Positions 1 through 64,000 of a stretch of 64,000 bases of DNA are shown here, piece after piece; the stretch's first letter is position 1; the number at the start of each line of letters is the position of its first letter. Made by a program: the position numbers and the translations under genes. Below the pieces are notes generated by a model, which was not told the origin of the DNA, did no database searches, and was given only the letters and a program-made list of their open reading frames with translations. The stretch is from Candidatus Moanibacter tarae (GTDB lineage Bacteria > Verrucomicrobiota > Verrucomicrobiia > Opitutales > UBA2987), in the NCBI GenBank assembly GCA_003226295.1, contig CP029803.1:736211-800210 (forward strand). The letters run 5' to 3'.

Positions 1-2
1 TT

Positions 3-1082
3 AACCTGGCCGAAATGGAGGAAGGATCCAGGCGCTATTGGTCCCGTTTAGAAAGTACACAAGCTCAAGGTGTTATACATGTTATGCATGTTACGACTGA
101 TGATGGTGTTGAGGGAATGTGCACGGTGGGTGATGCACGTTATCGCAAGATCTTGGAGAGCGATCTTGATCATCTCCGTCATCTTGCCGTAGGAGAGGAT
201 CCTCTTGATCGCGAAAGGCTGAACTCGAAATTGAGTTACGCGACACGCTTTATGTTTACCCGCCCAGGATGGTTTGGTGCATTTGATAATTGCCTTTGGG
301 ATATTGCTGGAAAGGTTTCCGGCATGTCGGTTTGCCGAATGCTGGGTAGAGCACGATCCGAGGCACCCGCTTACTACAATTACGGTGGTAAAGACAAGAA
401 GGCTGCAATTGAAGACGCACATAAAGCCTTGGATATGGGCTTTTCTGCATTGAAGGACCACTTTTCTGGTCGCGGGCGTGAGAATGTCGCTTGGTCTGAA
501 GCGGTGCGTAAAGCGATAGGCCCTAATGTTGAGCTCTTGCACGACGCCGCCGGGTGTACCTATACATTCGAAGAAGCTGTGCAGGTGGGAAGAGCCCTGG
601 AGCAACTTGAGTTTCTTTGGTTTGAGGAACCCCTTCCGGATCGAGATATGATTCCCTTGCAACGGCTCTGTGCAGCTCTTGATATATCTGTCATGGCGTT
701 GGAATCGATGATGCATGATATAAAATTGAGTGCTACTTGGTTAATCCAAGGTGCTACAGACCGGATTCGCGCTAATGCGCGACATGGTGTTACCTCTCTT
801 TTGAAGCTCGCTCATATGGCTGAATTACACAATACCACTGTCGAACTAAACGGGCCAGGGGGTCTATTTGGGTTGGTACACTCACACATGATGTGTGCTA
901 TTGGGAATACGACCTACTACGAGTATTTCCCGTGCGGATCGCGAGATGAGGCAGGGAAGGAGATTGGATTGTTAAATCCACCTGTTCCCGTTAATGGGAA
1001 CATTTCTCCGCCTGAAGGCCCAGGATGGGGCGCCGATTGGGATCGTTCCTATTTTGAGAAGATTCGGACAGCGGTGCTATAA
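3..1082 (+). CDS. Enolase-superfamily enzyme (mandelate racemase/muconate lactonizing enzyme family), probably 5'-truncated by the window edge
   Basis: ORF 15..1082, but the frame stays open back to nt 3. The protein is ~25 aa shorter at the N-terminus than its paralogs at 54097..55242 and 55298..56443. Motifs GWFGAFDNCLWDIAGK, LLHDAAG, WFEEPLP and ALESM sit at the Asp/Glu/Glu metal-ligand positions of the MR/MLE barrel. Confidence 0.85.
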   Translation, partial: NLAEMEEGSRRYWSRLESTQAQGVIHVMHVTTDDGVEGMCTVGDARYRKILESDLDHLRHLAVGEDPLDRERLNSKLSYATRFMFTRPGWFGAFDNCLWDIAGKVSGMSVCRMLGRARSEAPAYYNYGGKDKKAAIEDAHKALDMGFSALKDHFSGRGRENVAWSEAVRKAIGPNVELLHDAAGCTYTFEEAVQVGRALEQLEFLWFEEPLPDRDMIPLQRLCAALDISVMALESMMHDIKLSATWLIQGATDRIRANARHGVTSLLKLAHMAELHNTTVELNGPGGLFGLVHSHMMCAIGNTTYYEYFPCGSRDEAGKEIGLLNPPVPVNGNISPPEGPGWGADWDRSYFEKIRTAVL

Positions 1083-1106
1083 TTCGAACAAATAGTAATT
1101 AAACCA

Positions 1107-1745
1107 CTAGCCAGCGGCCCATACGACACTGTTTGTCACCAATTGCTGCATCATTGCCCGCTTAAAGGTGGCGGGTCCATGTCCAAGGGTTGTATAGAAC
1201 ACCCGTCCCTCACCGTATTTTTGGGTCCAGGCCATGGGCTGGCTTGGGTTATCCTCCCATATTGCTGACGCCAATATATGAATCGAGGGATCCCAAGCGG
1301 ACATGTAAATCTCGTCGTCAACCTCGAAATTCTGGATTCCAGAAGTAATCTCATGTTCGTGGTCCTCGATCTTGACTTCGAAAGTGAGTCCAGGTGGATG
1401 CCAATTAGCATGTCCACCCAACAAGGTGACAGCACGGGAAGGGACCTGCCAGGCAGCTCCATGTACACCAACAAGCCCACCACCTCCTGCAACATAGTCG
1501 AAGAGCCCGCGTTCTTGTTCGTGAGTCAGATCATTGCGATGCTCGATGTTGCCATCTTCATGGCGAACAACATTGGTGAACCCTGTGCCGAATACACAGA
1601 CATCGTATCGGTTTAAATTTAGGAGGATGTTCTTGTCCTCGATCAATTCAGCCTTGATTTCAGCGTTTTGATTCAGGAAGTCTTGAATCACATGGGCGCT
1701 TTCGTTGAATCGATGATTTTGGCCGGATAAGACGATTACTTGCAT
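1107..1745 (-). CDS. ThuA-domain protein (trehalose-utilisation-like, class-I glutamine amidotransferase-like fold)
   Basis: 212 aa. Motifs GGGGLVGVHGAAW, DDEIY and GEGRVFYTTLGHG are typical of ThuA-like proteins. Confidence 0.7.
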   Translation of the reverse strand: MQVIVLSGQNHRFNESAHVIQDFLNQNAEIKAELIEDKNILLNLNRYDVCVFGTGFTNVVRHEDGNIEHRNDLTHEQERGLFDYVAGGGGLVGVHGAAWQVPSRAVTLLGGHANWHPPGLTFEVKIEDHEHEITSGIQNFEVDDEIYMSAWDPSIHILASAIWEDNPSQPMAWTQKYGEGRVFYTTLGHGPATFKRAMMQQLVTNSVVWAAG

Positions 1746-3300: not shown

Positions 3301-4098
3301 CTACCCAAGAGCGTTCGGTATTAGAGAGCCTTCACCAAAGGCTATTGAAAAATCTGGTCGATCTTTCTCTTTTATTTTGGCGCGACCATCCATGTAGCAG
3401 ACACTGAAAGCACGACGAGGTTCTTTTGTAGAGTTAACCTCGGAGCTGTGTAACAAAAAATTGTGCAATAGAAATCCTTCACCAGCTTTACATTCTAGCA
3501 TTTCCTCAGAATAGAGGGGGAGGACTTCATTAATCTGTTCTTGGTTAAGAAAGACGGTAGAATTATTTTTCTCGAACTGGCGATGTGAGCCAGGTAGGAC
3601 TTTAACGCAGCCGTTCTCTACTTTTGAATCATCTAATGCCATCCAAACGGTGATAAAAGGAGGTCGGTCAACATGTGGGAAGTTATCCTGGTGCCAGGGT
3701 AGCACAGTCCCTTTCTCAGCAGGTTTGTTCATAAACATGGCTCGAAAAATCGAGAAAGGAATACCTTTACCATAGGCTCGTTCGCAAATATCCAAAAACA
3801 TAGGCTTTTGAAGGTAACTGAGGAAAAGGGGATCAAATTCAAGTCCTTGTATCTTTCGATAAGTCAGCGTAGCTCCTTTATGACCAAGTGTTTGCTTTGG
3901 CATATCCTTGTAATCGCCAGTTTTTGAATCCAGCTGCATCATGATGAGGTCGTAGGGAACCTGAGCTGTTCCCATCATGATTTCATTTATTCGCACTCTC
4001 AGTTTGTGTAGTTCATCATCGCCTACAACCTTACCAAGACGGACAAATCCTCGTTTCTTGAAGGTTTCCCACTCTTCTCCAGTTAGATTCTGTCGCAT
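3301..4098 (-). CDS. Phytanoyl-CoA dioxygenase (PhyH) family Fe(II)/2-oxoglutarate dioxygenase
   Basis: 265 aa. N-terminal F-x-x-x-G-F motif, HxD ligand pair in LPWHQDN and a distal His in LLHSSEVN. Confidence 0.8.
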   Translation of the reverse strand: MRQNLTGEEWETFKKRGFVRLGKVVGDDELHKLRVRINEIMMGTAQVPYDLIMMQLDSKTGDYKDMPKQTLGHKGATLTYRKIQGLEFDPLFLSYLQKPMFLDICERAYGKGIPFSIFRAMFMNKPAEKGTVLPWHQDNFPHVDRPPFITVWMALDDSKVENGCVKVLPGSHRQFEKNNSTVFLNQEQINEVLPLYSEEMLECKAGEGFLLHNFLLHSSEVNSTKEPRRAFSVCYMDGRAKIKEKDRPDFSIAFGEGSLIPNALG

Positions 4099-4345: not shown

Positions 4346-5590
4346 TTACCCGCATATTATAGGATTTGGCCGATCACTGTAACCACCTGGCAGGTAGGGG
4401 AATCTCTCCTCCAAGTGTTCCGCGAGTTCGACTCCAAATCCAGGCTTCTTAGGCAGGTCCATATAGCCATTCACGACATCTAGGGGTTCCTTGAAGATTT
4501 CTGTTCGAAGTGGATCAAAGGTTTCGAATCGTTCAAGCATTAGTGCATTGGGACTGGCGGCGACAAGAGCAGCATTAGCCAAGGTGCAGCTCCCATCACC
4601 CCAATTATGGGGGCAAAAAGGTTTCCCTTTAAGGGCGGCCATACGAACGACTCGCCAGGCTTCCAATAGTCCGATTCGGCCGGCATCTGGCTGAAGCATA
4701 TCGTAGGCACCGCGGTCGAACCACTCTTTCAACTCATGAGGATCGATCAATCCTTCTCCACCCGAAATCATAACCGTAGGCAGTTCTTCCTGAAGACGAA
4801 GGTGCTGTTCGAATGAGTCTTTTCTATCACGCACCATGGGTTCTTCAAACCATGTAAAGTCTAAGTCTTCCAAAACTGGAGCAAGTTGGAGGGCTTCCTC
4901 AAGAGACCAGGGCCTTAGTTCTAGGGCGAGATCAAAATTGGGACCAACTGCTTCTCTGACTTTAACGAGGTAGGGAATAAATTTGTCAACTGTTATACCG
5001 CTATATTCCCAATAGGTTCCCGGTCTGAATTTGTAAGCAGTAAACCCTTGTTCTTTAATCGCGCTTGCCTCTTCGATCAGCTGATCGGGACGGTCGTACC
5101 AAGCGTACTTTACTCCGGCGCTGGCATAAACTCGGAGGTGGGTGTTCGGTTCTGCATCAACAGCGAGCAAGTCATAAACCGGGCGACCGCTTGCTTTTCC
5201 AACAATGTCGAACATTGCGGCCTCGACTCCAGCCCAGGCAGAACGCCCCACATTCGTTCCTCCACCCCAAGCGAGCTTGTGAACATCAAATGGATTTTTT
5301 CCGACTAATACTGGTTTTACTGTTTCTTCGAGAAACGTTTTGATCGGTAAGCAGCAACCGGAACCGCTATAGCGGCTCGAACCACCAATACCCACGATTC
5401 CTTGATCGGTGAATATTTCGACTATAATGGAATCCGACTTCCACCAAATCCCTTTACCAACCAAAAGTTGTTCCTCAGGTGGATATTCGACAGAGAGAAG
5501 GGTGACTTTCAGATCGGTAATCTTAATATTCTGTCTCTCGATTCCCTCAAGAGGATGGTGGCGATTTCTCGAGAGTGCTTCGGAATTCAT
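4346..5590 (-). CDS. Enolase-superfamily enzyme (MR/MLE family, probable acid-sugar dehydratase or cycloisomerase)
   Basis: 414 aa. Motifs EAAMFDIVGKASGRPVYDLL, FTAYKF, LALELR, WFEEP, ISGGE and PHNW. Confidence 0.85.
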   Translation of the reverse strand: MNSEALSRNRHHPLEGIERQNIKITDLKVTLLSVEYPPEEQLLVGKGIWWKSDSIIVEIFTDQGIVGIGGSSRYSGSGCCLPIKTFLEETVKPVLVGKNPFDVHKLAWGGGTNVGRSAWAGVEAAMFDIVGKASGRPVYDLLAVDAEPNTHLRVYASAGVKYAWYDRPDQLIEEASAIKEQGFTAYKFRPGTYWEYSGITVDKFIPYLVKVREAVGPNFDLALELRPWSLEEALQLAPVLEDLDFTWFEEPMVRDRKDSFEQHLRLQEELPTVMISGGEGLIDPHELKEWFDRGAYDMLQPDAGRIGLLEAWRVVRMAALKGKPFCPHNWGDGSCTLANAALVAASPNALMLERFETFDPLRTEIFKEPLDVVNGYMDLPKKPGFGVELAEHLEERFPYLPGGYSDRPNPIICG

Positions 5591-5933: not shown

Positions 5934-7094
5934 ATGTCAAAGGACATTAAGATTACACGAATCGCAGTTACTCAGTTTAGCCATGAATTTGAAAATCTGA
6001 GCCTAGAGTCACGGTATGGATTTGATCTAGTTTACAAGGCGGGTGCAACCTTGTCCCAAAAAGGGAGTATTCTAACCATTGAAACCAGTGCTGGTGTTAG
6101 TGGCCAGACCCTTGGAGGGATTGATGACAGGACTGCGCGCTATTTGCTAGGACGGAATCCGTTAGACCGTGAGATTATATGGCATGATCTCAAACGTTCT
6201 AATAGAGTGTCGACCGGTGCGCCACCAGGAGAAGTCGATATTGCTCTTTGGGATTTTGCTGGAAAGTTATACGGTGCTCCCGTCTACGAGCTCCTCGGAG
6301 GAGGTTGGCGCAAAAAACTTCCCGCATATGCCTCAACCTATCATGGTGATGAGAATGGAGGCCTAACAACTCCAGGAGATTTTGCCCAATTTGCCAAGTA
6401 CTGTAAAGACGAGTATGGATACCCCGCTTTTAAAATTCATGGTTGGGTCAATGGTCCTATTGACCGGGAAATTGATGCGGTATTGGCTATACGGGAAGCC
6501 GTAGGAGAAAAAATGGACCTTTTGCTGGATCCCGCAGGAGCTTTTCAGACCTTTGAGGATGTTCTTAAAGTGGGGCGTGCTGTTGATGAGGCTCGTTATA
6601 TGTGGTATGAGGATCCTTTTAGAGGGGGTGGATTCTCACGTTTCGCACACGCAAAACTCCGGGAACTAATCAAGACTCCTATGTTAATGGGAGAGCATGT
6701 CCGAGGACTAGAGGCGAAGGCTGACACTATATATACCGGAGCTACCGATTTTGTACGCGCCAACGCCAATGCCGACGGAGGGATAACGGGTGTAATGAAG
6801 CTTGCCTCACTGGCCGAAGCTCATGGTTTGGATGTTGAGTTGCATGGGGGCTCCTTAGCACATCGACATGTAATGTCGACCCTGCGCAATGCCAATTACT
6901 ATGAGCTCGGGCTTGTACATCCGAAGATTCCAAACACAAAACCGCCAATTTATAACGAACGGCGGTGGCTTGATGAGCTCGATTCAGTCGATGAGAATGG
7001 TTGTGTCGAAGTGCCTGAAGGCCCTGGATTAGGGGTCCAGCTTGATTGGGACTATATTAAGGCTAACCAGACAGGAGAGGGTGTGTACGAGTGA
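5934..7094 (+). CDS. Enolase-superfamily enzyme (MR/MLE family)
   Basis: 386 aa. Motifs DIALWDFAGKLYGAPVYELLGG, FKIHG, LLLDPAG, WYEDPF, LMGEH and GATDFVRANA. AAGGA lies 8 nt upstream of the ATG. Confidence 0.85.
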   Translation: MSKDIKITRIAVTQFSHEFENLSLESRYGFDLVYKAGATLSQKGSILTIETSAGVSGQTLGGIDDRTARYLLGRNPLDREIIWHDLKRSNRVSTGAPPGEVDIALWDFAGKLYGAPVYELLGGGWRKKLPAYASTYHGDENGGLTTPGDFAQFAKYCKDEYGYPAFKIHGWVNGPIDREIDAVLAIREAVGEKMDLLLDPAGAFQTFEDVLKVGRAVDEARYMWYEDPFRGGGFSRFAHAKLRELIKTPMLMGEHVRGLEAKADTIYTGATDFVRANANADGGITGVMKLASLAEAHGLDVELHGGSLAHRHVMSTLRNANYYELGLVHPKIPNTKPPIYNERRWLDELDSVDENGCVEVPEGPGLGVQLDWDYIKANQTGEGVYE

Positions 7095-7390: not shown

Positions 7391-8101
7391 ATGCAGGTAG
7401 AAGTTGAAAGATTATTTCGGGCACCGTATTCGGTACCCAATGGATTGCAGGTGGTAGATGAAGGAATATGGATTGCTGACCAGATCACAGGCCGTGTTGC
7501 TTTAATGGAGATAGAGAGTGTCGATCCAGACTACGGAACGACAAAGTTTATTCGGGATATTCCTTCTGAATCGTCCAATACCAGTGGGATGGCATTCGGA
7601 GGAGGCTTCCTCTGGCTTGCGGCGAATGGGGATGGTTCAAGATGGCGGCCGGTTCGTGAAACGGATCCCAAAAGTGGAACGTCTGAAATTTTTAAGATTG
7701 ATCCGAAGAATGGAAACACGGTGAACCGCTATTTGGTTCCTGGTGGCGGTGGGGTCCATGGGTTTGAATACGATCATGTAGAGGAGGATGTGGTTTGGGT
7801 AACACATCCGGGACGAAAGGAGATGAGTAAGGTCCGTTTGCCGGATTGGACGGTTGAGCGAGTCTATAAGCTACCTCGAGAAAGGGCACATGGCGTCGTT
7901 CGTATGGAAGATGGAATTTGGGTGACTTTTACCTCGGATAGGGTGATTGTGATGTTAGATCTGGACTCAGGTGAAGAGCTTGACTGCATTGAGGTCCCCG
8001 AGCCGCATCCGCAACCGCATGGATTGTCTCTATACGGGGAGGGTTTTATCTACTGCGATGCTAGTTCTGGATGGGTGGCAAAGATTAACATGATGCTCTA
8101 A
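7391..8101 (+). CDS. Hypothetical protein, beta-propeller-like repeats (possible lactonase-type fold, weak)
   Basis: 236 aa. Recurrent G-I-W-(I/V)-x-D/T blade-like segments (DEGIWIADQ, GFLWLAANG, DVVWVTHPG, DGIWVTFTS, GFIYCDASS). No catalytic motif recognised. Confidence 0.5.
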   Translation: MQVEVERLFRAPYSVPNGLQVVDEGIWIADQITGRVALMEIESVDPDYGTTKFIRDIPSESSNTSGMAFGGGFLWLAANGDGSRWRPVRETDPKSGTSEIFKIDPKNGNTVNRYLVPGGGGVHGFEYDHVEEDVVWVTHPGRKEMSKVRLPDWTVERVYKLPRERAHGVVRMEDGIWVTFTSDRVIVMLDLDSGEELDCIEVPEPHPQPHGLSLYGEGFIYCDASSGWVAKINMML

Positions 8102-8307: not shown

Positions 8308-9363
8308 ATGCCAAAAGATAAGATTAGAATTGGTGTCATAGGAGCTGGCGGAATTTTCCGTACCCGTCACTTCCCTGGCCTGGCCAAGGTTAAAGACGCT
8401 GAGGTTGTTGCAATCTGCAATCGATCAGTTGCGAGTGGCCGAAAAATTTCAAAGGAATTTGGGATCGAACCCGATCTCATGACCGATCCTTATGCCCTAA
8501 TCGCACGCGATGACATTGATGCAGTGATGATTGGGACTTGGCCCTATAAGCACTGCGAGTATGTATTAAAGTCACTCGATGCTGGTAAACATACTTGGGT
8601 CCAGGCACGGATGGCTATGAATTTGAGAGAAGCCCGTGAGATGTACTCTAAGTCAGAGGAAACCGGTCTTGCTGCTCAGATTTGTCAACCCCCTCATGCT
8701 ATGAAAGGCGACTACTACATGCGTCGTCTGATAGCTGATGGTTATGTTGGTGATATCACGAATATCGTTATTCGGTCCATGACTCCAGCCCTACTCAATC
8801 CAAGAACTCCACTGCATTGGCGACAAATCAGCCAATTATCTGGTCTAAATACGATGAGCGTCGGTATGCTTTATGAGTTTGTTAATCGGTGGTGTGGAGA
8901 CACTTCCTCTCTGACTGCCCAAGCTGTTACATTCACGAAACAACGTCCGGTCGGCCGAGAGAAAATGGGAGATGTTGATCGGCCTGACACGGTCAATATT
9001 CTTGCTGTCATGGAAAGTGGGGCGACTGCCGTCTACATGTTCTCGGGCGCTGCTCATCATGCGCCGAGTGAACGTATCGAGATCTATGGGAATGCAGGTA
9101 CTTTGGTTTACGAAACAGCCGTTAACCTCAATGACCAACGCATCCTCGGTGCCAAAGGAACGGGAAAAGAGCTTAAAGAACTTTCTGTTCCTCGAAAAGA
9201 CGCTTGCAGGTGGACCGTTGAGTCGGACTTTATCAATTCCATCAAGACCGGTGAGCTTGCCGAATCGACCTTTTATCAGGGTGTCAAGTACATGGAATTC
9301 ACCGAGGCTGTTTTTCGTTCGGTGGAACGCGGTCAGACCGTGAATTTTCCAGTTGTCGACTAA
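8308..9363 (+). CDS. Gfo/Idh/MocA family oxidoreductase
   Basis: N-terminal Rossmann motif IRIGVIGAGGIF. 351 aa, typical for the family. GAGGA upstream of the ATG. Confidence 0.85.
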   Translation: MPKDKIRIGVIGAGGIFRTRHFPGLAKVKDAEVVAICNRSVASGRKISKEFGIEPDLMTDPYALIARDDIDAVMIGTWPYKHCEYVLKSLDAGKHTWVQARMAMNLREAREMYSKSEETGLAAQICQPPHAMKGDYYMRRLIADGYVGDITNIVIRSMTPALLNPRTPLHWRQISQLSGLNTMSVGMLYEFVNRWCGDTSSLTAQAVTFTKQRPVGREKMGDVDRPDTVNILAVMESGATAVYMFSGAAHHAPSERIEIYGNAGTLVYETAVNLNDQRILGAKGTGKELKELSVPRKDACRWTVESDFINSIKTGELAESTFYQGVKYMEFTEAVFRSVERGQTVNFPVVD

Positions 9364-9603: not shown

Positions 9604-10425
9604 ATGGAGCAAACTGCAAGGCCCATAAGTATAGAGGATGAAAGTTTCTTTCACCGCGAGGGCTATTTGGTTATTCCCAGCTTTTTAAATACAGAGTTCA
9701 ACTCTTGTTTGCGAGCAGACGTTGACCAGCTGATGATAGACCGGGCAGATGGAAGTGAACGCCTACTGGTTGCCTATCCTGATCTCGGATTACTTACTTC
9801 CCATCCAGCTTTGACAGATATTCTCCAGATATTAATGGGCCCACGTTTTGCCATGCATCACATTCACGCGGTACGCCAGGACGCCGGAGCTCAGGGTGTG
9901 TATTGGCATCAGGACTATGAACAGTTGCCCCAAACGAATCGATCTCATTTGATGGTGCATGTGTTTTACTACCTCAATGGTCTTAATGGCGAAGTTGGTG
10001 ATTTATTGGTCCTACCGCGTTCGCAGGATCGAATTGTGGCTAGGGATGCAATGATGTCTTTTGGCACCGAGGATCTTCCCGGTTCGTTGTGTTTTGACGA
10101 TTTATCTCCTGGTAGTGCCGTTATTGTGCATTCGGCCCTTTGGCATGCTCGTCGCCCCAAGCCAGGTGGAGAGAACGAGTCTCGCTATTTCATCGATGTT
10201 TCCTATTGCCAAAATGGTGTTCTGTGGCCCAGTTACGGAAAGAGGCAGGCGGAGATTAACCGGACCGCCTTAGCCCAAGGGTTGGGACGTAATGGTCGTT
10301 ACGATTTCCTCTATGATAGCAGCCAGTTCTTTGACCAAGATGCTTTAACTGAGGATTTCGATCAAACTAACAAAGGAAGCATCGTTCTGCAAATGAAGGG
10401 AATATCTATGGGGGATCAGGGTTGA
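9604..10425 (+). CDS. PhyH family Fe(II)/2-oxoglutarate dioxygenase
   Basis: FHREGYLVIP N-terminal motif, YWHQDY (HxD) and HSALWHARRP (distal His). GGAGGG Shine-Dalgarno sequence upstream. Confidence 0.8.
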   Translation: MEQTARPISIEDESFFHREGYLVIPSFLNTEFNSCLRADVDQLMIDRADGSERLLVAYPDLGLLTSHPALTDILQILMGPRFAMHHIHAVRQDAGAQGVYWHQDYEQLPQTNRSHLMVHVFYYLNGLNGEVGDLLVLPRSQDRIVARDAMMSFGTEDLPGSLCFDDLSPGSAVIVHSALWHARRPKPGGENESRYFIDVSYCQNGVLWPSYGKRQAEINRTALAQGLGRNGRYDFLYDSSQFFDQDALTEDFDQTNKGSIVLQMKGISMGDQG

Positions 10426-17894: not shown

Positions 17895-17925
17895 TTGGTT
17901 AGAAGAATTAATTTAGCATCACCAA

Positions 17926-18876: not shown

Positions 18877-18957
18877 GGTGTTTTCAGTAAGGATCGTAGG
18901 TTTTTAGATTACAGAGTTTCTTCGGGAACGGCCCAATTATTAACTGTGCATTGAAGG

Positions 18958-47943: not shown

Positions 47944-48666
47944 ATGGCGGGCGAAAAATTAAAATTACGGATTAACAACGGGGAGATTATTGAAAGCGTA
48001 TCAGTCCCGAAGAATATTCCCAGAGGGGAACTAGAAGGGATTTTGTCGGAGCGTCACTTTGATTTTCTCTATGTAGACTGTCAACATGATGCCCACAATG
48101 AAGAAAGCTTAGTGGAATTCTGCAAGATGGCGGAAGAGTTATCCATTCCGGTACAGGCTAGAATTAAACATACGCGTGATGCTTATCTCATTGGCACTTA
48201 CCTTGATCTTGGGCCTTCAGGGATCATGGTTCCCGAGGTTAAGGAAGAGATAACAGTTGATGAAGCCCTGGATTCGTTCTACTACCCGCAAAGGGGTAAG
48301 CGTAGTTGGGGAGGTCAAAACAGAATGGGGTTTTCTGAGCGACAGGGTCGCCTCGAGTACTCTAATTGGTGGAATGAAACTGGGTTTCTAACGCTCCAGA
48401 TCGAATCTGTTGAGGCGGTTGTGAATACCCGTTTCCTAGCTAAGGCGGGAGTGGATATTCTCAGTTTTGGCGAAAATGACTTGATGTTTAGTATCGAAGG
48501 AGATCCAGAATTCCCCTTTCGGACTCAGGATGAATGTCTACGCCACGTTCTTAATGAACTCCAGGGGACGAATGTTCGGGTGTCAATGTGCCCCGAGACA
48601 GAGGAAGCAAGAGAAAAATATCTTGAGATGGGAGTGACAATTTTTAATGAGCGAAGGGATCAGTAA
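47944..48666 (+). CDS. HpcH/HpaI-family (class II, 2-keto-3-deoxy-acid) aldolase-like protein
   Basis: FLYVDCQHDAH, GIMVPEV, LQIESVEAV and FGENDL motifs. The ATG at 47944 directly follows the TTG at 47941 used in the ORF track. Confidence 0.75.
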   Translation: MAGEKLKLRINNGEIIESVSVPKNIPRGELEGILSERHFDFLYVDCQHDAHNEESLVEFCKMAEELSIPVQARIKHTRDAYLIGTYLDLGPSGIMVPEVKEEITVDEALDSFYYPQRGKRSWGGQNRMGFSERQGRLEYSNWWNETGFLTLQIESVEAVVNTRFLAKAGVDILSFGENDLMFSIEGDPEFPFRTQDECLRHVLNELQGTNVRVSMCPETEEAREKYLEMGVTIFNERRDQ

Positions 48667-53168: not shown

Positions 53169-53174
53169 CCAAAG

Positions 53175-54017
53175 ATGAATAAACTCGAACTTACACCACA
53201 ACAACTATCCTTCATCGATGTTTTTGGATATTTGAAGTTTTCCGGTCTGCTTCTAGATCGAATTGATGAGATTATAGAAGCATTTGAGAGGGTTTGGGAA
53301 GAACGCGGTGGTGGCCATAATGGAAAGATCCACGATGGTACCGCGCGCTCGTGTATCGTGCCATTCATTGACCAAAGCGAATATCTCTCTTCGTTGCTGG
53401 ATGATCCACGAGTTAATGGAATCTTTTCTAGCCTCCTGGGAGAGGATTTTCAATATCTCGGTAGCGATGGAAACTACTACGTAGGGAATACCAGATGGCA
53501 TTCCGACGGCACTTGGCCGCGTCCCATTATCTACTACAAGATGGCGCTTTATCTTGATTTTCTCAATGGTGATTCTGGAGCACTTAGCGTGGTTCCTGGG
53601 AGTCATCGATATGGGGAAAACTACGCAGAGGAACTGGAACGGCAAATTCGCAAGCCTGAAGAGTTTTGGGGTATGGGTGGTGATGAAGTTCCGGCGATGG
53701 CTTTAGAGACAGTTCCGGGTGATGTAGTGATTTTTAATCAAGGAACTAAACACAGCTCGTGGGGAGGTGGAGACCGACGTAGGATGTTTACGATAAACTG
53801 CACTCTGCGTCATACAGATGAGCAAATACCATTGCTACGCCAAGAAGTGAGCGGATCCGCTCGATTTCTTGTGGATTCAGTCTATGGGGAAGCAATGCTT
53901 CAAAGCGCCGATTCGGCTCGTATGCGTCACCTGGAGCAAGGGTTGGCGAACCAAGATCACCTACCCGAGCTTGTACGAAGGGAAAGAGAGCAGCGTGACG
54001 AACCATCACGGGGCTAG
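53175..54017 (+). CDS. PhyH family Fe(II)/2-oxoglutarate dioxygenase
   Basis: FIDVFGYLKF N-terminal motif, RWHSDG (HxD) and GTKHSSWGG (distal His). Apparently co-transcribed with 52149..53168. Confidence 0.8.
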   Translation: MNKLELTPQQLSFIDVFGYLKFSGLLLDRIDEIIEAFERVWEERGGGHNGKIHDGTARSCIVPFIDQSEYLSSLLDDPRVNGIFSSLLGEDFQYLGSDGNYYVGNTRWHSDGTWPRPIIYYKMALYLDFLNGDSGALSVVPGSHRYGENYAEELERQIRKPEEFWGMGGDEVPAMALETVPGDVVIFNQGTKHSSWGGGDRRRMFTINCTLRHTDEQIPLLRQEVSGSARFLVDSVYGEAMLQSADSARMRHLEQGLANQDHLPELVRREREQRDEPSRG

Positions 54018-54038: not shown

Positions 54039-54096
54039 GGGTTCTTCAATACAAAATACAGTATCCCTATCTTATTCCACTTAGAATCCCTTAGGC

Positions 54097-55242
54097 TTAG
54101 ACCTCTTCTACAATAAGGGAGGCGAACTTTTCCTCGTCCCACTGCGCTCCCCACCCAGGAAGATTATTGGGAGCAATGTGGCCGTCCTTGATGATGGGGG
54201 CGTTGGTGAGACCCCAGAGAGCCCCTTGTTCCCGCAAGGCATCGGGGGATAGTGCCATGTATTCATAGAATTGAGTGTTTTCAATGCAGCATCCGAGCGT
54301 GGCGTGAACAAGGCCGGACAGACCTCCAACGCCATTGAGTTCGATTGTGCCACCATACAATTCGGCAAGATGGGCAAGCTTTAGGACATGGGTTGTTCCA
54401 GCTCTGGCGTTTCCTCGAAGAAGGTCAGTCCCACCCTGAATGAGCCATTGGGAAGTTATTCCGATATCGTTCATAAGCATCTCGGTACCCATCACCGGGA
54501 TGGTCAGTTCATCGCACAATTCCTGATAGAGATTGAGTTTGTACTCGTGCATGGGTTCCTCGAGCCAAACGAAATCCAAGTCTTCCATTACATGACCAAC
54601 CTCGATTGCTTCCCTTAGGTCGTAGGAGCAAACCGGATCGTTTAATAGATCGTAATCAGCACCAACAATTTCCCTCACCTTGGTGAAAATTGGGATATCT
54701 GCCTTGCCGCCTTTGTAAGTGTGGAATTTGTAGGCGTTTATTCCAAATGATTTCCCAATATCAATATGTTCCAGATATTGTTCTAGAGTAGAATCACCGG
54801 CAGTGAGATAGACCGGAAGACTCTCTCGAACTCTTCCCACCAAAGCGTGGACAGGAAGGTTAGCTGCTTTCCCAAGGATATCCCACAGGCAATTATCAAA
54901 AGCTCCGAACCATCCTGGCGGTTGGTAAACCCATCGCGTTCCTTTGTGCAACTTTTGCCAGATTGCCTCACGGTTAAAGACGTCCTCACCGATTACCTGA
55001 TTTTTGATTATGGACAATTGTGTTGGTGTTATTGAAATGTCTGTGGTGACGATGCTCTCGATTCCCTCGTCAGTGATGACTTTGAGGAAAGTGTTTCGGG
55101 TCTTAACAGTGCCTGATTGCTTCGCGCGCCCGTGGGTGTACTGGATGCGTCTTAGGTTGGGGATAGTAGTTAACTTCCACTCTCTAGCCGGGTGTTCATC
55201 GTCAAGTTCTAAGGTGATCAGTTTGATATCTGCTATCTTCAT
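54097..55242 (-). CDS. Enolase-superfamily enzyme (MR/MLE family), tandem copy A
   Basis: 381 aa. Motifs GWFGAFDNCLWDILGK, YKFH, LLNDPV, WLEEPM, MGTEM and GGTDLLRGNA. Identical to copy B except residues 2 and 19-21. Confidence 0.85.
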   Translation of the reverse strand: MKIADIKLITLELDDEHPAREWKLTTIPNLRRIQYTHGRAKQSGTVKTRNTFLKVITDEGIESIVTTDISITPTQLSIIKNQVIGEDVFNREAIWQKLHKGTRWVYQPPGWFGAFDNCLWDILGKAANLPVHALVGRVRESLPVYLTAGDSTLEQYLEHIDIGKSFGINAYKFHTYKGGKADIPIFTKVREIVGADYDLLNDPVCSYDLREAIEVGHVMEDLDFVWLEEPMHEYKLNLYQELCDELTIPVMGTEMLMNDIGITSQWLIQGGTDLLRGNARAGTTHVLKLAHLAELYGGTIELNGVGGLSGLVHATLGCCIENTQFYEYMALSPDALREQGALWGLTNAPIIKDGHIAPNNLPGWGAQWDEEKFASLIVEEV

Positions 55243-55297
55243 TTTATAACTTTTTGTAAGCTTCTTATTTCAGGGAGCGTCAATGAATCCCTTAGGC

Positions 55298-56443
55298 TTA
55301 GACCTCTTCTACAATAAGGGAGGCGAACTTTTCCTCGTCCCACTGCGCTCCCCACCCAGGAAGATTATTGGGAGCAATGTGGCCGTCCTTGATGATGGGG
55401 GCGTTGGTGAGACCCCAGAGAGCCCCTTGTTCCCGCAAGGCATCGGGGGATAGTGCCATGTATTCATAGAATTGAGTGTTTTCAATGCAGCATCCGAGCG
55501 TGGCGTGAACAAGGCCGGACAGACCTCCAACGCCATTGAGTTCGATTGTGCCACCATACAATTCGGCAAGATGGGCAAGCTTTAGGACATGGGTTGTTCC
55601 AGCTCTGGCGTTTCCTCGAAGAAGGTCAGTCCCACCCTGAATGAGCCATTGGGAAGTTATTCCGATATCGTTCATAAGCATCTCGGTACCCATCACCGGG
55701 ATGGTCAGTTCATCGCACAATTCCTGATAGAGATTGAGTTTGTACTCGTGCATGGGTTCCTCGAGCCAAACGAAATCCAAGTCTTCCATTACATGACCAA
55801 CCTCGATTGCTTCCCTTAGGTCGTAGGAGCAAACCGGATCGTTTAATAGATCGTAATCAGCACCAACAATTTCCCTCACCTTGGTGAAAATTGGGATATC
55901 TGCCTTGCCGCCTTTGTAAGTGTGGAATTTGTAGGCGTTTATTCCAAATGATTTCCCAATATCAATATGTTCCAGATATTGTTCTAGAGTAGAATCACCG
56001 GCAGTGAGATAGACCGGAAGACTCTCTCGAACTCTTCCCACCAAAGCGTGGACAGGAAGGTTAGCTGCTTTCCCAAGGATATCCCACAGGCAATTATCAA
56101 AAGCTCCGAACCATCCTGGCGGTTGGTAAACCCATCGCGTTCCTTTGTGCAACTTTTGCCAGATTGCCTCACGGTTAAAGACGTCCTCACCGATTACCTG
56201 ATTTTTGATTATGGACAATTGTGTTGGTGTTATTGAAATGTCTGTGGTGACGATGCTCTCGATTCCCTCGTCAGTGATGACTTTGAGGAAAGTGTTTCGG
56301 GTCTTAACAGTGCCTGATTGCTTCGCGCGCCCGTGGGTGTACTGGATGCGTCTTAGGTTGGGGATAGTAGTTAACTTCCACTGACTAACTGGGTGTTCAT
56401 CGTCAAGTTCTAAGGTGATCAGTTTGATATCTGCTATCCTCAT
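55298..56443 (-). CDS. Enolase-superfamily enzyme (MR/MLE family), tandem copy B
   Basis: Same motifs as copy A. Differs by K2R and A19V/R20S/E21Q. Confidence 0.85.
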   Translation of the reverse strand: MRIADIKLITLELDDEHPVSQWKLTTIPNLRRIQYTHGRAKQSGTVKTRNTFLKVITDEGIESIVTTDISITPTQLSIIKNQVIGEDVFNREAIWQKLHKGTRWVYQPPGWFGAFDNCLWDILGKAANLPVHALVGRVRESLPVYLTAGDSTLEQYLEHIDIGKSFGINAYKFHTYKGGKADIPIFTKVREIVGADYDLLNDPVCSYDLREAIEVGHVMEDLDFVWLEEPMHEYKLNLYQELCDELTIPVMGTEMLMNDIGITSQWLIQGGTDLLRGNARAGTTHVLKLAHLAELYGGTIELNGVGGLSGLVHATLGCCIENTQFYEYMALSPDALREQGALWGLTNAPIIKDGHIAPNNLPGWGAQWDEEKFASLIVEEV

Positions 56444-56685
56444 TTTATAACCTTTTGTAAGCTTCTTATTTCAGGGAACGTCAATTATTGCAGTCTGGAA
56501 CAGTTTGAAATTGCAATAGAAAACTTTGAAAATAGAAATTAAGAAGGAGCTTTTGCTTAAGGATAGTTTTGGTTTCAAGCCCTCTATTTCTTAATAACGA
56601 CCATTAGTTAGAAATTTAAAGACGTGGGAGATGGCCCCGTGTAGAAAAAGAACCAGGTGAAGACCAAGAATAATCATTTACAGTA

Positions 56686-59884: not shown

Positions 59885-60844
59885 ATGTCCACTCAACCAG
59901 GAAACAAAATCCAACAAAAACTAATTCGCGGTGCCGTCCCAGTTCTTTGTATGCCGTTCGAGGCTAATGGCGCTGTTGATGTTGATAGTTTACTCAGGGA
60001 GATTGATTTTTGTGTCGAGGCAGGTTCACAGGCGATTGCTTTTGGAAAGGGCAGTGAAAGCCCCGAGCTTACGGATCACGAGAGGAAGACGGTTTGGACT
60101 GCAGCATCGCGGCATCTTAATGGGCAACTGCCTCTGGTAGTGGCAACTGCGCATCCTAGTCATGAAGGAGTAATTGCTTTGACTCAATTAGCACTAGATT
60201 GCGGCGCTGATTGTGCTATGGTTGACCCGGATCAAAAAAAAGGAGAAGAGTTAATACGACTATTTCGGGAACTGGCGAGTAGGGTTGATCTTTCCATCAT
60301 GCTACAGGATGCAGGAGGAAATGCTCCGGTTCCGATCATGCTTCAGGCGGTTCGAGAGTCGCCAACCATAAATTGCATGAAGATCGAATGTCCGGGTACT
60401 CCCAATAAAATGGCTGAAGTAATCAACAGCCTTCGTGAGATCAAGATGAGTGACGGAGTAGGACGAACTGTGGATATCTTAGGAGGTGGAAACGGGAATC
60501 TATTGCTGGAAGAGTTAGATCGGGGATCGGTTGGAACATTACCTTATCCTGCCTTGATCGATGCATTTCGATCCGTTTGCGATCTTTATTCCTCGGGGAA
60601 TACCGGTGGGGCATGGGAATGCTATTTACAACAGATTCTTCCACTTAGTCGACTGGTGGCCTCTGGGGGTCCCATGGGAGGTGATATATGGATGCACAAG
60701 ACCATATTTGAGCGAGCTGGAATTCTCCGTACGAACGTATGTAGGAGAGAATCTCAGCCGCAACCAGCCTGGGTTGTGGAAAAAGTATGGGCACATTTGA
60801 AAGTCTCAGATCTCCTAATTAGTAAACTTTTGGCGGGCAAATAG
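59885..60844 (+). CDS. Dihydrodipicolinate synthase / N-acetylneuraminate lyase family class I aldolase-like protein
   Basis: GKGSESPELTDHER aligns with the GTTGES-x-LS-x-EE motif, and INCMKIE aligns with the Schiff-base Lys motif (I-x-G-I-K-E/D). 319 aa. Confidence 0.75.
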   Translation: MSTQPGNKIQQKLIRGAVPVLCMPFEANGAVDVDSLLREIDFCVEAGSQAIAFGKGSESPELTDHERKTVWTAASRHLNGQLPLVVATAHPSHEGVIALTQLALDCGADCAMVDPDQKKGEELIRLFRELASRVDLSIMLQDAGGNAPVPIMLQAVRESPTINCMKIECPGTPNKMAEVINSLREIKMSDGVGRTVDILGGGNGNLLLEELDRGSVGTLPYPALIDAFRSVCDLYSSGNTGGAWECYLQQILPLSRLVASGGPMGGDIWMHKTIFERAGILRTNVCRRESQPQPAWVVEKVWAHLKVSDLLISKLLAGK

Positions 60845-62388: not shown

Positions 62389-62769
62389 AAGTCATTCACT
62401 AGCAGAAAATTTCAAAAATCGGAATAGAATTCTGTATTTCCATTGATTTTTTATGTCGGTTGAAATCACCCGCTTCAGGTGGAATTATATTATGGCGATC
62501 TTTCATTTCAAAAGTGAGTAGGTTGCTAATTATTTTTAACAGACATCAGCAAAATATAAAATTGGAGTTCCTAAAACAGTGGATAACCAACAAAGAAACA
62601 TTAGTAAAACCAAATAGAAGTAAATCAATGCGGTTTGAATTCTCATTCAGAGGAAGTTGCTTTTCAGATTAATACGTTCTATTTTCTTTATAGGTAAAAT
62701 GGGATATGAATCTTTTCGAATACCCTTCTCGCTAGTCGGTAGAATTAAAACAACTCCAGGAGGTAGCCA

Positions 62770-63921
62770 GTGCCGAAGTACCGTACCGCAATTATAGCAA
62801 CAGGAATTATTGCGCGCGTTCATGCTCGTGGGTGGCTCGGGGTGCCGGAACGGCCAGTAGAGATTGCTACGATTGCCGATACTAATGCAGAGGCACTTCG
62901 GGAATTTGGTGACTTTTTCGAGGTTCGGGAAGATAAACGCTACAAGGACTATCGGGAGATGCTGGATGTAGAGAGGCCGGACTTTGTCGATGTCTGTTCT
63001 TGGCACCAATTACACGCAGAAATGGTAATCGCTGCCGCGGCTCGACGGCCCCGAGCGATTATTTGTCAGAAGCCTATGGCAGTAGATTTAAGAGAGGCAA
63101 ATGAGATGATGGTTGCCTGTGAGCGCAATCAGGTTCGGTTGGTCATCGCTTACCAGAGGCCACATCATGCTGTGTGGCTCAAGGCTAGGGAACTTCTGCG
63201 AGATGGAATCATTGGGAAAATCAATAGAATTGAGGTCGACGCCTCCGGAAATATGCTGAATACGAATTCACACAATATTCGGCTTGCGCTATTCCTCATG
63301 GATGAGCCTCAGGTCGAATGGGTGATGGGAACCGTGGAACGCATCACTGATTTGGTTGAGAGAGGTTTGCCAGCAGAAGATGCTTCCCTCGGGATAGCGG
63401 CTTGTAGTAACGGTGCTTCAATCCTGATTCACGGAAACCTTATTAAAGGTATTGGGCAAGGATGTCGCGTTTTTGGAACTGACGGGCTTATGGAATTAAG
63501 TACCTCATACCATCCGAATTCAAAGATTCCTTCTGATGCCCCTATGTATATGCCAGAAATGCCATCTGCCCGTTATAATTTTGAAATTGGAAAGGCGTGT
63601 TACATGAACGCCGCTTCGAATGGGTGGCGAGAGATTGAAGCGCCTTGGCACGATTGTTGGGCCCATCAATGCCAGGAGACAATCGATTGGGTTGAAAACA
63701 AGGTCGAAGAGCCAATCAGTAGCGGGGATCGGGGCCGATCGGTGCAGGAGGTTATGATGGCTCTTTATGAGTCTACGCGAAAAAGACAAAGGATTTACTT
63801 GCCGCTCAAGACGTTGATTAATCCTTTGAGGCTTATGGTGGAAAGTGGTGATCTTTCCGTAGAGTGGCCGGGGCTTCACGAAATACGGTCCGGGATTTTA
63901 CGGGGTGAAGACATGAAATAA
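62770..63921 (+). CDS. Gfo/Idh/MocA family oxidoreductase
   Basis: GTG start with AGGAGG 8 nt upstream. YRTAIIATGIIA and CQKPMAVDLREANEM motifs. Confidence 0.85.
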   Translation: MPKYRTAIIATGIIARVHARGWLGVPERPVEIATIADTNAEALREFGDFFEVREDKRYKDYREMLDVERPDFVDVCSWHQLHAEMVIAAAARRPRAIICQKPMAVDLREANEMMVACERNQVRLVIAYQRPHHAVWLKARELLRDGIIGKINRIEVDASGNMLNTNSHNIRLALFLMDEPQVEWVMGTVERITDLVERGLPAEDASLGIAACSNGASILIHGNLIKGIGQGCRVFGTDGLMELSTSYHPNSKIPSDAPMYMPEMPSARYNFEIGKACYMNAASNGWREIEAPWHDCWAHQCQETIDWVENKVEEPISSGDRGRSVQEVMMALYESTRKRQRIYLPLKTLINPLRLMVESGDLSVEWPGLHEIRSGILRGEDMK

Positions 63922-64000
63922 TGTGCAGATTACTCCATATTATAAGTTTTCGCTGAAAGTTGATAATAGTTTCCAAAGGTTTTTGACACGGGGAATCAGG

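Follow-up and report, generated by a model that had tools for sequence, protein, structure and literature searches.

Concentration of divergent enolase-superfamily, Gfo/Idh/MocA and PhyH genes in a 64-kb stretch of a marine verrucomicrobial genome

In a 64,000-nucleotide stretch of the contig CP029803 of 'Candidatus Moanabacter tarae' (positions 736,211 to 800,210, called the window in the following), 23 of the 49 genes belong to three enzyme families. Nine code for enolase-superfamily proteins, eight for Gfo/Idh/MocA oxidoreductases and six for PhyH oxygenases of the Fe(II)/2-oxoglutarate (2OG) type. The paralogs are divergent and their local enrichment is very likely real, as judged against a null derived from the literature. 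On balance, we consider the window to belong to a cluster that is specific to this lineage, measures at least about 78 kb and consists of cytoplasmic catabolic genes, most of them transcribed singly. CP029803 is a 2,633,965-bp contig of Tara Oceans with a GC content of 46% and 2,237 coding sequences (CDS), assigned to the class Opitutae (PMC6256433); the publication is a genome announcement without functional analysis.

Results

Three enzyme families are enriched in the window

The window contains 51 open reading frames (ORFs) of at least 150 amino acid residues. Two of them are nested in longer ORFs (48-716 on the minus strand and 61849-62379 on the plus strand), which leaves 49 genes. All 49 proteins were analysed by hmmscan with the Pfam gathering scores as cut-offs. 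A preliminary description of this DNA had assigned nine genes to the enolase superfamily, eight to Gfo/Idh/MocA and six to PhyH. All 23 scored above the gathering score at the expected coordinates, and the profile search supported every family call down to the weakest PhyH protein (28.2 bits, cut-off 22). Genes are named here by family and start; on the minus strand, the quoted start is the low coordinate, which is the stop-codon end.

The paralogs had been described as divergent apart from one tandem pair, and this was borne out by blastp. The identity within the families was 17-34%, with the exception of the tandem enolases (98.95%) and of ENO_3, which is 40% identical to this pair. The catalytic residues that we checked in the three families were mostly intact.

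The enolases make up 18% of the window genes, 6.5 times the highest genome-wide proportion on record. That proportion is about 2.8% and belongs to SAR202 group I, the top of 47,894 GTDB genomes (PMC10444878). For PhyH, a proportion of more than 1.9% of the genes is given for Poribacteria genomes (PMC3909097). We took these highest literature proportions, which stem from other lineages and not from the counts of CP029803 itself, as the null for a window that had been chosen after the fact because it looked enriched. Under the 2.8% null, the probability of finding at least nine enolases among 49 genes is 8e-6, and under the 1.9% null, that of at least six PhyH genes is 3e-4. When corrected for about 46 windows in 2,237 CDS, the counts would be unremarkable only if the genome had at least 124 enolases (5.5% of the CDS), 99 Gfo/Idh/MocA and 56 PhyH genes. 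A crude background of 1.24 Mb around PhyH orthologues in other phyla contained 0.7% enolase and 1.2% Gfo/Idh/MocA genes. Since 18% enolases stand against a record of 2.8%, a uniform density across the genome is implausible, and we conclude that the local enrichment is very likely real, with a null that is derived from the literature.

The enolase-superfamily proteins resemble acid-sugar dehydratases

All nine enolase-superfamily proteins (ENO_3, ENO_4346, ENO_5934, ENO_15041, ENO_38552, ENO_43981, ENO_45378, ENO_54097 and ENO_55298) matched MR_MLE_N and MR_MLE_C above the gathering score. This is the two-domain architecture of the mandelate racemase (MR) subgroup, with a capping domain and a (beta/alpha)7beta barrel. 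In the alignment, the three metal-ligand columns are kept in 9/9 proteins as D (E in ENO_4346), E (in 'EEP') and E (in 'GE'), and the lysine of strand 2 is present in all of them. The pair of a histidine in strand 7 and an aspartate in strand 6 was found in ENO_4346, ENO_15041, ENO_38552, ENO_43981 and ENO_45378; ENO_5934 has kept the histidine and has an asparagine instead of the aspartate. ENO_3 and the tandem proteins ENO_54097 and ENO_55298, which form one clade, have asparagine at both positions and a K-x-H instead of a K-x-K in strand 2. The aligned residues thus suggest that the catalytic make-up of this clade differs and that its chemistry may be other than that of the standard acid-sugar dehydratases.

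Acid-sugar dehydratase models of the MR subgroup were the best NCBIfam match for all nine proteins. Only ENO_43981 (43981..45126, minus strand) passed a curated cut-off, that of D-galactonate dehydratase (NF010624, 408.8 against 311 bits), and none of the other 22 paralogs in the three families has a curated function. With the same model, ENO_45378 (45378..46511, plus strand) reached 256.7 bits and ENO_15041 (15041..16129, minus strand; Pfam 172 and 46.9 bits) 198.3 bits, so that both are galactonate-dehydratase-like below the cut-off; the other six scored far below. ENO_38552 (38552..39730, minus strand) is similar to L-rhamnonate dehydratase, also below the cut-off (253.7 against 393 bits). 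ENO_4346 (4346..5590, minus strand; Pfam 158.5 and 47 bits) matched gluconate/galactonate dehydratase best (129 against 750 bits), and its best hit in the PDB was 3OZM, a 'putative mandelate racemase'. ENO_3 (3..1082, plus strand) lacks its N-terminal end here because the window begins within the gene, and the full protein has 379 residues (locus L001); it scored 118.7 bits for MR_MLE_C and 29.2 bits for MR_MLE_N and reached no NCBIfam cut-off. The PDB relatives were acid-sugar dehydratases or, mostly, MR/MLE entries from structural genomics. For ENO_5934 (5934..7094, plus strand; Pfam 146.8 and 30.8 bits) and for the clade of ENO_3 and the tandem pair, the nearest solved structures are the Agrobacterium entries 1RVK/4HCD, with an E value of 4.6e-49 for ENO_5934.

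The tandem genes (54097-55242 and 55298-56443) lie on the minus strand within a duplication at 54084..56486 that has a repeat period of 1201 bp. They are the same at 1141 of 1146 nucleotides, with five differences in the ORFs, and the duplication is recent. Both copies are present in a 1.6-Mb JGI contig. The metagenome-assembled genome (MAG) GCA_002346685.1 of the UBA set has one copy and a 97-residue fragment, and the Tara scaffold_22 stops after about 54 bp of the repeat. From the scaffold end and the collapsed copies it follows that the duplication breaks assemblies, though it is present in two long contigs.

The Gfo/Idh/MocA proteins are assigned at the family level

The eight Gfo/Idh/MocA proteins scored 55.9-77.3 bits with PF01408, against a cut-off of 24. 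A glycine-rich loop of the GxGxxG/A type is visible in all of them and is degenerate in Gfo_42791 and Gfo_62770. The lysine of the EKP motif is kept in 7/8 of the aligned proteins; Gfo_8308 has QAR at this place. Pfam recognised a C-terminal domain in 6/8 proteins, the exceptions being Gfo_13897 and Gfo_31667. No NCBIfam equivalog cut-off was reached by any of the eight, and their scores were low and roughly equal for the inositol, xylose, UDP-GlcNAc, levoglucosan and glycoside-3 dehydrogenase models.

Three of the eight genes lie on the plus strand: Gfo_8308 (8308..9363; 68.1 bits, best NCBIfam match inositol 2-dehydrogenase with 90.9 against 355 bits), Gfo_52149 (52149-53168) and Gfo_62770 (62770..63921; 72 bits), beyond which the island continues. 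On the minus strand are Gfo_13897 (13897..14874; 67.3 bits), Gfo_27384 (27384..28478; three Pfam domains matched), Gfo_31667 (31667-32764; 55.9 bits) and the adjacent Gfo_41595 (41595-42665) and Gfo_42791 (42791-43837), which are 22% identical to each other by blastp.

The PhyH proteins have intact iron-binding residues

The six PhyH proteins exceeded the PF05721 cut-off of 22 bits. They are PHY_3301 (3301..4098, minus strand; 87.5 bits) and, on the plus strand, PHY_9604 (9604..10425; 37.5 bits; 100% identical to DF168_00678 of 'Ca. Moanabacter tarae'), PHY_23349 (23349..24152; 70.6 bits), PHY_25978 (25978..27198; 28.2 bits), PHY_37672 (37672..38472; 68.1 bits) and PHY_53175 (53175-54017; 35.6 bits). 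They had been called intact, and in the alignment the HxD...H triad (W/L-H-x-D and a distal histidine), a 'PGSH' motif and an arginine 8-11 residues past the distal histidine were indeed found in 6/6. Among 38 orthologues of PHY_53175, H109, D111, H193 and R202/R203 are invariant. The six are probably active Fe(II)/2OG hydroxylases, each acting on a different small substrate.

The statement that their function is uncharacterised also held. None of the six reached an NCBIfam cut-off, including those for ectoine hydroxylase, phosphonate hydroxylase and PhnY, and the PDB sequence search gave no relative for PHY_9604, PHY_25978 and PHY_53175. PHY_23349 and PHY_37672 had weak PDB matches to fungal meroterpenoid oxygenases, and the best matches of PHY_3301 were EvdO2 (1.6e-11), SnoK and SnoN. 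PHY_25978 has a C-terminal extension of about 150 residues without a Pfam or PDB match; its Latescibacterota orthologue scores 316 bits (locus L004). PHY_53175, the one protein of the six that was modelled, gave an AlphaFold2 model with a pLDDT of 87.2 and the double-stranded beta-helix fold of the oxygenases. Foldseek matched it with a probability of 1.0 to FtmOx1, OkaE, EvdO1, SnoK and SptF (TM 0.5-0.61). These are generic oxygenases of the PhyH fold, and the structure was uninformative as to the substrate.

PHY_53175 follows Gfo_52149 after a gap of 6 bp and has a GGAG 12 nucleotides upstream of its ATG. We read the two genes (52149..54017) as a putative translationally coupled pair.

Orthologues of three PhyH proteins are found in different gene contexts

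Three of the six PhyH proteins, PHY_3301, PHY_9604 and PHY_53175, were searched for orthologues. They were found at 48-87% identity in Latescibacterota, Chloroflexota, Gemmatimonadota and Planctomycetota. The six window proteins are mutually only 20-32% identical over stretches of at least 56 residues. These findings, together with a GC content at the genome mean and the lack of transposase, integrase and tRNA genes in the window, agree with the earlier proposal of an accumulated toolbox rather than a recent amplification.

For PHY_3301, 330 relatives were found in GTDB genomes and 80 loci with 47-85% identity were kept. Among these 80 loci, the orthologues with 47-62% identity belong to Latescibacterota, Chloroflexota, Planctomycetota, Actinopolymorpha, Abditibacteriota and others. 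The only recurrent immediate neighbour was an AraC-type regulator (19 of 140 neighbour proteins, Pfam), which does not point to any particular metabolism. It often stands beside the orthologues in other phyla, in contrast to the regulator-free window.

PHY_53175 had 2,717 homologues. Of the 120 best matches listed, one is a near-identical copy and the others share 60-79% identity with it. The few with organism names among the matches listed are from Gemmatimonadota, Caldilineaceae and other Chloroflexota. The contexts of its orthologues are mostly of the amide, amine or amino-acid type. On four long contigs, further PhyH genes, ThuA, KDPG and HpcH aldolases, MFS, sulfatase, luciferase-like, DUF8034 and Gfo/Idh/MocA genes were also found near them.

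PHY_9604 has roughly 430 homologues. Its orthologues (54-67% identity) on five long contigs stand near further PhyH genes in 5/5 and near an SDR gene in 3/5. Their neighbours are either GH32/43-like genes with a sugar ABC transporter, or GH36 with a lactonase, AP_endonuc_2 and Gfo/Idh/MocA, or three enolases; DHDPS genes occur as well. The contexts were of the sugar type in 5/5 distant genomes. In two of the five, the orthologue overlaps a downstream NAD-epimerase/dehydratase gene (PF01370) by 4 bp (L136:7001-8817 and L138:7001-8805). This overlap in two distant genomes is a candidate for a conserved two-gene module of a PhyH protein and an oxidoreductase. A single sugar-linked role of all six PhyH proteins, as implied before, was not upheld, since PHY_9604 orthologues stand in sugar-type, PHY_53175 orthologues mostly in amide, amine or amino-acid and PHY_3301 orthologues in AraC contexts. 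The six proteins look heterogeneous and probably do not share one substrate class.

On the Latescibacterota chromosome OZ240241.1 (8352357-8373142, locus L004), there are at least six PhyH ORFs in 20 kb, some of them orthologous to PHY_3301 and PHY_25978, and a GH32-like ORF and a DAO oxidoreductase gene adjoin this array. The array in L004, and also L071, L132 and L137, indicate that PhyH arrays occur in other phyla too. We searched the 80 genome loci and 45 metagenome loci with the 49 window proteins by phmmer. No adjacency to an enolase or Gfo/Idh/MocA gene was kept beyond the nearest relative, and a conserved operon was rejected. The order of the genes is not kept, yet PhyH genes of unrelated phyla are surrounded by the same guild of families.

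Layout, extent and assembly of the gene cluster

The coding density of the window is 86% and the median spacer 184 bp. Because the strand switches at 20 of 48 junctions, most genes look monocistronic. Tight joins are few: the GH95-like gene and Gfo_31667 (8 bp), Gfo_52149 and PHY_53175 (6 bp), and a unit of three genes with spacers of 31 and 81 bp. Scans of the window for promoters and terminators gave results at the chance level. Signal-peptide-like N termini were found for MsrA and MsrB only, so the other enzymes of the window, both glycosidases included, are predicted to be cytoplasmic.

The same gene order was found in an ENA Tara scaffold, the 1.6-Mb JGI contig, the UBA MAG, CEVA contigs and the published 2.63-Mb contig. 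Since these independent assemblies agree on the arrangement, an assembly chimera was rejected. In another Opitutales MAG (locus L003), the PHY_3301 orthologue is 85% identical and synteny is kept over 20 kb. The GC content is 43-49% throughout the window, against a genome mean of 46%, and with this uniformity nothing marks the region as foreign. No transposase or integrase was found by Pfam among the 49 proteins, and a tRNA scan and an Rfam search of the window gave no matches; a horizontally acquired genomic island was rejected on these grounds.

We read about 7 kb of each flank, and the enrichment runs on for this distance beyond both ends of the window. The left flank has a 357-residue PhyH protein, AP_endonuc_2 and two Ldh_2 proteins; the right flank (locus L128) has an SDR, a 418-residue enolase, an HpcH aldolase, a WelO5-like oxygenase and a further Gfo/Idh/MocA protein. 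The WelO5-family (PF22814) Fe/2OG oxygenase-like gene (L128:17695-18555) lies about 3.6 kb right of the window end, after the HpcH aldolase gene. With this gene, a second type of 2OG oxygenase belongs to the island.

Genes outside the three families

The other 26 genes include, by Pfam, two MFS transporters, GH32, GH95-like and weak GHL10-like proteins, an AKR, a 2-hydroxyacid dehydrogenase (2-Hacid_dh), HpcH and DHDPS-type aldolases, an amidase, an M20 peptidase, a pyridoxal-phosphate (PALP) enzyme, a GDPD protein, a TylF-type methyltransferase, one flavin and one luciferase-like monooxygenase and a few proteins of unknown function; a DUF8034 protein is annotated as well. A 2-keto-3-deoxy-acid aldolase candidate of the HpcH/HpaI type (class II) lies at 47941..48666 (plus strand; 34.5 against 25 bits), and one of the DHDPS family (class I) at 59885..60844 (plus strand; 48.7 against 22.1 bits). 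Downstream of Gfo_8308 and PHY_9604 and on the same strand follows an MFS transporter (10632-11831; MFS_1, 136 bits), and the predicted cytoplasmic GH32 hydrolase is located at 12081-13700 (plus strand; Glyco_hydro_32N 112 bits, 32C 78.9 bits; no signal peptide). The GH95-like glycosidase (32773-35694, minus strand) matched DUF5703_N and the GH95 catalytic and C-terminal domains. It precedes Gfo_31667 in an operon-like pair at 31667..35694.

A ThuA-like protein, of the family of trehalose and 3-keto-sugar utilisation, is encoded at 1107..1745 (minus strand; 127.9 bits). Between it and a PhyH gene are msrA and msrB (2000-3177), in the same arrangement as in the related MAG L003. The three-gene unit at 16314..20817 (plus strand) consists of a 526-residue protein of unknown function, a xylose-isomerase-like TIM barrel that is UxuA-like (17926) and a DUF3604 protein similar to CehA/McbA (18958-20817), which scored 76.2 bits with the NCBIfam model CehA_McbA, just under the cut-off of 80. 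A CehA/McbA-type, carbamate-hydrolase-like metallohydrolase at 60943-62388 reached 168.2 bits with the same cut-off. Both this hydrolase and its weaker relative are embedded among sugar-type enzymes. The TylF-type methyltransferase (35834) is the only tailoring-type gene in the window. The 621-residue DUF8034 protein (49992-51857) is encoded upstream of the Gfo_52149-PHY_53175 pair; a homologue stands near a PHY_53175 orthologue in an unrelated 5-Mb genome (L134:2666-4414), and it may be a recurring partner.

A small five-bladed beta-propeller of 236 residues (7391..8101, plus strand), which has only a weak Vgb_lyase match in Pfam, was tested as a candidate lactonase. Homologues in some JGI records are named 'sugar lactone lactonase YvrE' or 'streptogramin lyase'. 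The AlphaFold2 model (pLDDT 93) had its best PDB folds in bacterial and plant glutaminyl cyclases (TM 0.68-0.73) and also matched Vgb lyase. Orthologues of the protein in Poribacteria, Caldilineaceae, other Chloroflexota and Latescibacteria are about 60% identical to it, and in another genome its orthologue adjoins aldehyde and alcohol dehydrogenase genes and not an enolase or Gfo/Idh/MocA gene. With a predicted fold nearest to glutaminyl cyclases and an orthologue context without these families, the identity as a lactonase is not supported.

A polysaccharide utilisation locus was considered and set aside: there is no SusC/D, sulfatase or regulator among the 49 proteins, and the GH32 and GH95-like enzymes have no signal peptide. 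The window is not such a locus, not a classical sugar-acid operon and not a mobile island.

Discussion

We think it somewhat more probable than the opposite that the window represents a lineage-specific concentration of a cytoplasmic catabolic toolbox, with old and divergent paralogs for the oxidation of many sugars and other small dissolved organics. We infer the substrates and the order of the steps as follows. Small carbohydrates and related polar molecules would be imported by the MFS transporters, and oligosaccharides would be trimmed inside the cell by the GH32 and GH95-like enzymes. The NAD(P)-dependent Gfo/Idh/MocA proteins would oxidise the sugars, either at C1 to lactones or acids or at C3 to keto-sugars, and the AKR, 2-hydroxyacid dehydrogenase and SDR proteins may also act as oxidising enzymes. 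Enolases of the mandelate-racemase type would then dehydrate the sugar acids to 2-keto-3-deoxy acids, which the HpcH- or DHDPS-type aldolases would split, or which would be further reduced or oxidised. The many paralogs would give many parallel short routes for many substrates, as has been proposed for SAR202. The accessory AKR, 2-Hacid_dh, HpcH, DHDPS, ThuA, TIM-barrel, GH32 and GH95-like proteins and the two MFS transporters fit such a pathway and support the toolbox reading.

A non-phosphorylative sugar pathway had already been suggested in the preliminary description. At the level of enzyme classes this stands, with 9/9 enolases nearest to acid-sugar dehydratases, one of them an equivalog for galactonate, and with the HpcH and DHDPS aldolase families present. 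The dehydrogenase step is covered at the family level only, with no Gfo/Idh/MocA equivalog, and the lactonase step was not found.

Several results weigh against the toolbox reading. No recognisable lactonase is among the 49 proteins of the window, all but one of the 23 paralogs stay below the cut-offs of the curated NCBIfam function models, and three enolases (ENO_3, ENO_54097 and ENO_55298) have no canonical His/Asp pair. No transcription regulator was found by Pfam among the 49 proteins, and in 45 upstream regions the k-mer counts were not above those of shuffled sequences; without a shared upstream motif and a regulator, co-regulation is unsupported. Only the closest relative keeps the gene order. 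Around the PHY_3301 orthologues, enolases occur at a distance of up to 10 kb in only about 8 of 78 loci and Gfo/Idh/MocA genes in about 18 of 78, and the Gfo_52149-PHY_53175 pairing was not found in 45 metagenome loci of PHY_53175 orthologues. On the four long contigs, these orthologues stand near amidases (formamidase/acetamidase and penicillin amidase), aminotransferases, GGT, hydantoinase, DAO and a BCCT transporter. The amidase, the M20 peptidase, the pyridoxal-phosphate enzyme, the CehA/McbA-type relatives and the monooxygenases also indicate that this is not purely a sugar locus, and part of the island may be unrelated to sugars.

The role of the PhyH proteins within the toolbox is a separate question. 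Some of them could be catabolic carbohydrate enzymes that hydroxylate their substrate or oxidatively strip a substituent (an O-methyl group, a deoxy position or possibly an ester), each paired with an NAD(P)-dependent oxidoreductase in a module of two enzymes. Candidate modules would be Gfo_52149-PHY_53175 and Gfo_8308-PHY_9604 and, in Latescibacterota and another genome, the PhyH genes that overlap an NAD-epimerase/dehydratase gene by 4 bp. We put this proposal, including its modules, forward tentatively and regard it as unlikely in its general form. Among the single proteins, PHY_9604 probably has a substrate of the carbohydrate type, on which it would act jointly with an NAD-dependent oxidoreductase, and its link to carbohydrates is plausible. 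Such a link is possible for PHY_53175, which is coupled to a Gfo/Idh/MocA gene here, and for PHY_3301, which has relatives that act on sugar moieties. PHY_53175 may act on nitrogen-containing compounds, an option that is as live as the carbohydrate one. The opposite view is that the window is a toolbox for dissolved organic matter in general, where the PhyH proteins have nothing to do with sugars, hydroxylate nitrogen- or phosphorus-containing molecules (ectoine-like solutes, betaines, amino-acid derivatives or phosphonates) and only share a genomic 'storage area'. This would explain the BCCT, amidase, aminotransferase, GGT, hydantoinase and DAO genes that adjoin PHY_53175 orthologues in Gemmatimonadota or Chloroflexota-like genomes, as well as the amidase, M20 peptidase, PALP and CehA/McbA-type genes of the window. 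It would also agree with the weak NCBIfam similarity of PHY_3301 to methylphosphonate and ectoine hydroxylases, and with phosphonate use as the only function that has been proposed for the PhyH proteins of Poribacteria (PMC3909097). However, PHY_9604 orthologues stand amid glycosidases, sugar transporters, enolases and NAD-dependent sugar-type oxidoreductases in 5/5 distant genomes, PHY_53175 is coupled to a Gfo/Idh/MocA gene in the window, and no PhyH protein reaches the cut-off for ectoine or phosphonate hydroxylases. A PhyH set wholly unrelated to sugars is thus a serious option that we nevertheless rather doubt.

The remaining explanations concern the dehydrogenases and the cluster as such. 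The Gfo/Idh/MocA proteins might mainly be 3-dehydrogenases of glycosides and sugars that work in 3-keto cleavage with TIM-barrel lyases and ThuA, instead of C1 dehydrogenases that feed the enolases. In that case, the enolases would handle sugar acids that are taken up separately. ThuA (1107) and the AP_endonuc_2/UxuA-like TIM barrel (17926) in the window, AP_endonuc_2 in the left flank and again near PhyH orthologues, the operon-like pairing of a Gfo/Idh/MocA gene with the GH95-like glycosidase, and the low-scoring NCBIfam matches to glycoside and disaccharide 3-dehydrogenases and levoglucosan dehydrogenase would all suit this view. These scores, however, are at most 57 bits against 650-750, and a DUF1080-type partner was not seen. 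The inositol, xylose and UDP-GlcNAc models score the same or better, and the regiochemistry of the Gfo/Idh/MocA proteins is therefore unreadable from the sequence; we consider the 3-keto route doubtful. It is quite improbable, in our view, that the clustering has no functional meaning and reflects a neutral build-up of dispensable paralogs, or a region of low constraint with unrelated and individually regulated genes. The gene order that is not kept outside the closest relative, the missing upstream motif and regulator, and the 20 strand switches at 48 junctions with a median spacer of 184 bp would suit this view. Yet the enrichment affects three families simultaneously, accompanied by aldolases, reductases, transporters and glycosidases that belong to one chemistry with them, PhyH orthologues of unrelated phyla again have this guild around them, the synteny is retained in L003 with its 85% identical PHY_3301 orthologue, and the mostly intact catalytic motifs speak for genes under selection. 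An artefact, either a chimeric metagenome assembly or spurious ORF and family calls, is very improbable. The data are metagenome-derived, the tandem enolases are collapsed in one MAG and the Tara scaffold ends at the repeat, but the gene order is repeated in the independent assemblies named above, the GC content is uniform at 43-49% and 23/23 family calls are above the Pfam gathering scores.

The toolbox reading has its closest parallel in SAR202 group I (Chloroflexota), for which 80 divergent enolase paralogs with dehydrogenases and aldolases are described, as well as growth on fucose and rhamnose and on the lactones and acids of these sugars (Lim et al. 2023, PMC10444878). The logic of parallel routes was proposed in that work, and growth experiments tested it in part. 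Both cases concern marine heterotrophs with a small genome and many deeply divergent MR-type enolases (COG4948), most without a characterised relative, accompanied by NAD(P) dehydrogenases, aldo-keto reductases, HpcH/DHDPS-type aldolases and MFS transporters. The two differ in phylum (Verrucomicrobiota here), in the dehydrogenase partner, which is SDR (COG1028) there and mainly Gfo/Idh/MocA here, and in the COG3618-type lactonase, which was not seen in the window. The 2.8% described for SAR202 is a genome-wide proportion, whereas the enolases are physically concentrated here, with 18% of the genes in 64 kb. PhyH genes are interleaved here, and a word search of the SAR202 paper for 'dioxygenase' gave no match (PMC10444878). 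Numerous and highly divergent PhyH proteins of uncharacterised function are known from Poribacteria, which are also marine heterotrophs and have a large repertoire for carbohydrate degradation (Kamke et al. 2014, PMC3909097). Poribacteria also have orthologues of the 7391 propeller, and relatives of the window PhyH proteins were found in Latescibacterota, Caldilineaceae, Gemmatimonadota and one listed Poribacteria locus (L067). In Poribacteria, the genome-wide frequency was noted and a PhnY-like phosphonate use was proposed, whereas six copies stand in one island beside sugar-acid enzymes here. The differences from these two expansions are the phylum, Gfo/Idh/MocA as the main dehydrogenase partner and the clustering of three families in a 2.6-Mb genome.

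The enzyme classes of the window, a sugar dehydrogenase, an enolase-type aldonate dehydratase and a 2-keto-3-deoxy-acid aldolase, are those of the De Ley-Doudoroff, Weimberg/Dahms and L-fucose/L-rhamnose 'diketo-hydrolase' routes. Classical non-phosphorylative operons are compact and regulated; each step has a single enzyme, a lactonase is included and a regulator is usually present. In the window, neither a regulator nor a recognisable lactonase was found, most genes look monocistronic and each step is several-fold redundant. EvdO1/EvdO2 and SnoK/SnoN oxidise C-H bonds in the sugar residues or moieties of antibiotics. They are the closest solved relatives of PHY_3301 (E values of 1.6e-11 to 1e-8) and among the best fold matches of PHY_53175, at an identity of only about 20%. 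They are biosynthetic and belong to natural-product clusters; no glycosyltransferase, polyketide synthase or nonribosomal peptide synthetase domains were found by Pfam in the 49 window proteins. Our literature search gave no work linking 2OG oxygenases to the demethylation of methylated sugars, and none that treats PhyH and enolase-superfamily enzymes of Verrucomicrobia jointly.

The dissolved organic matter of the sea has a very diverse chemistry, and it is a wider question by what means bacteria with small genomes cope with this diversity. The window shows a SAR202-like strategy of divergent paralogs and parallel short pathways in an unrelated, globally sampled verrucomicrobial lineage. The question of what expanded PhyH families do, which has stood since the Poribacteria report of 2014, becomes a short list of testable enzyme pairs. 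The coupled Gfo/Idh/MocA-PhyH pair, the row of Gfo/Idh/MocA, PhyH, MFS and GH32 genes and the orthologous PhyH-epimerase pairs are candidates that can be cloned. If the PhyH proteins do not act on sugars, the island is a useful yet descriptive example of paralog clustering. If they do act on modified sugars, they would represent a new enzyme class for marine carbohydrate catabolism and provide a first function for the PhyH expansions of Poribacteria, Latescibacterota, Caldilineaceae and marine Verrucomicrobiota. They would then add an oxygen-dependent 'unlocking' step to the turnover of marine glycans and dissolved organic matter, beside the known P450 sugar demethylases.

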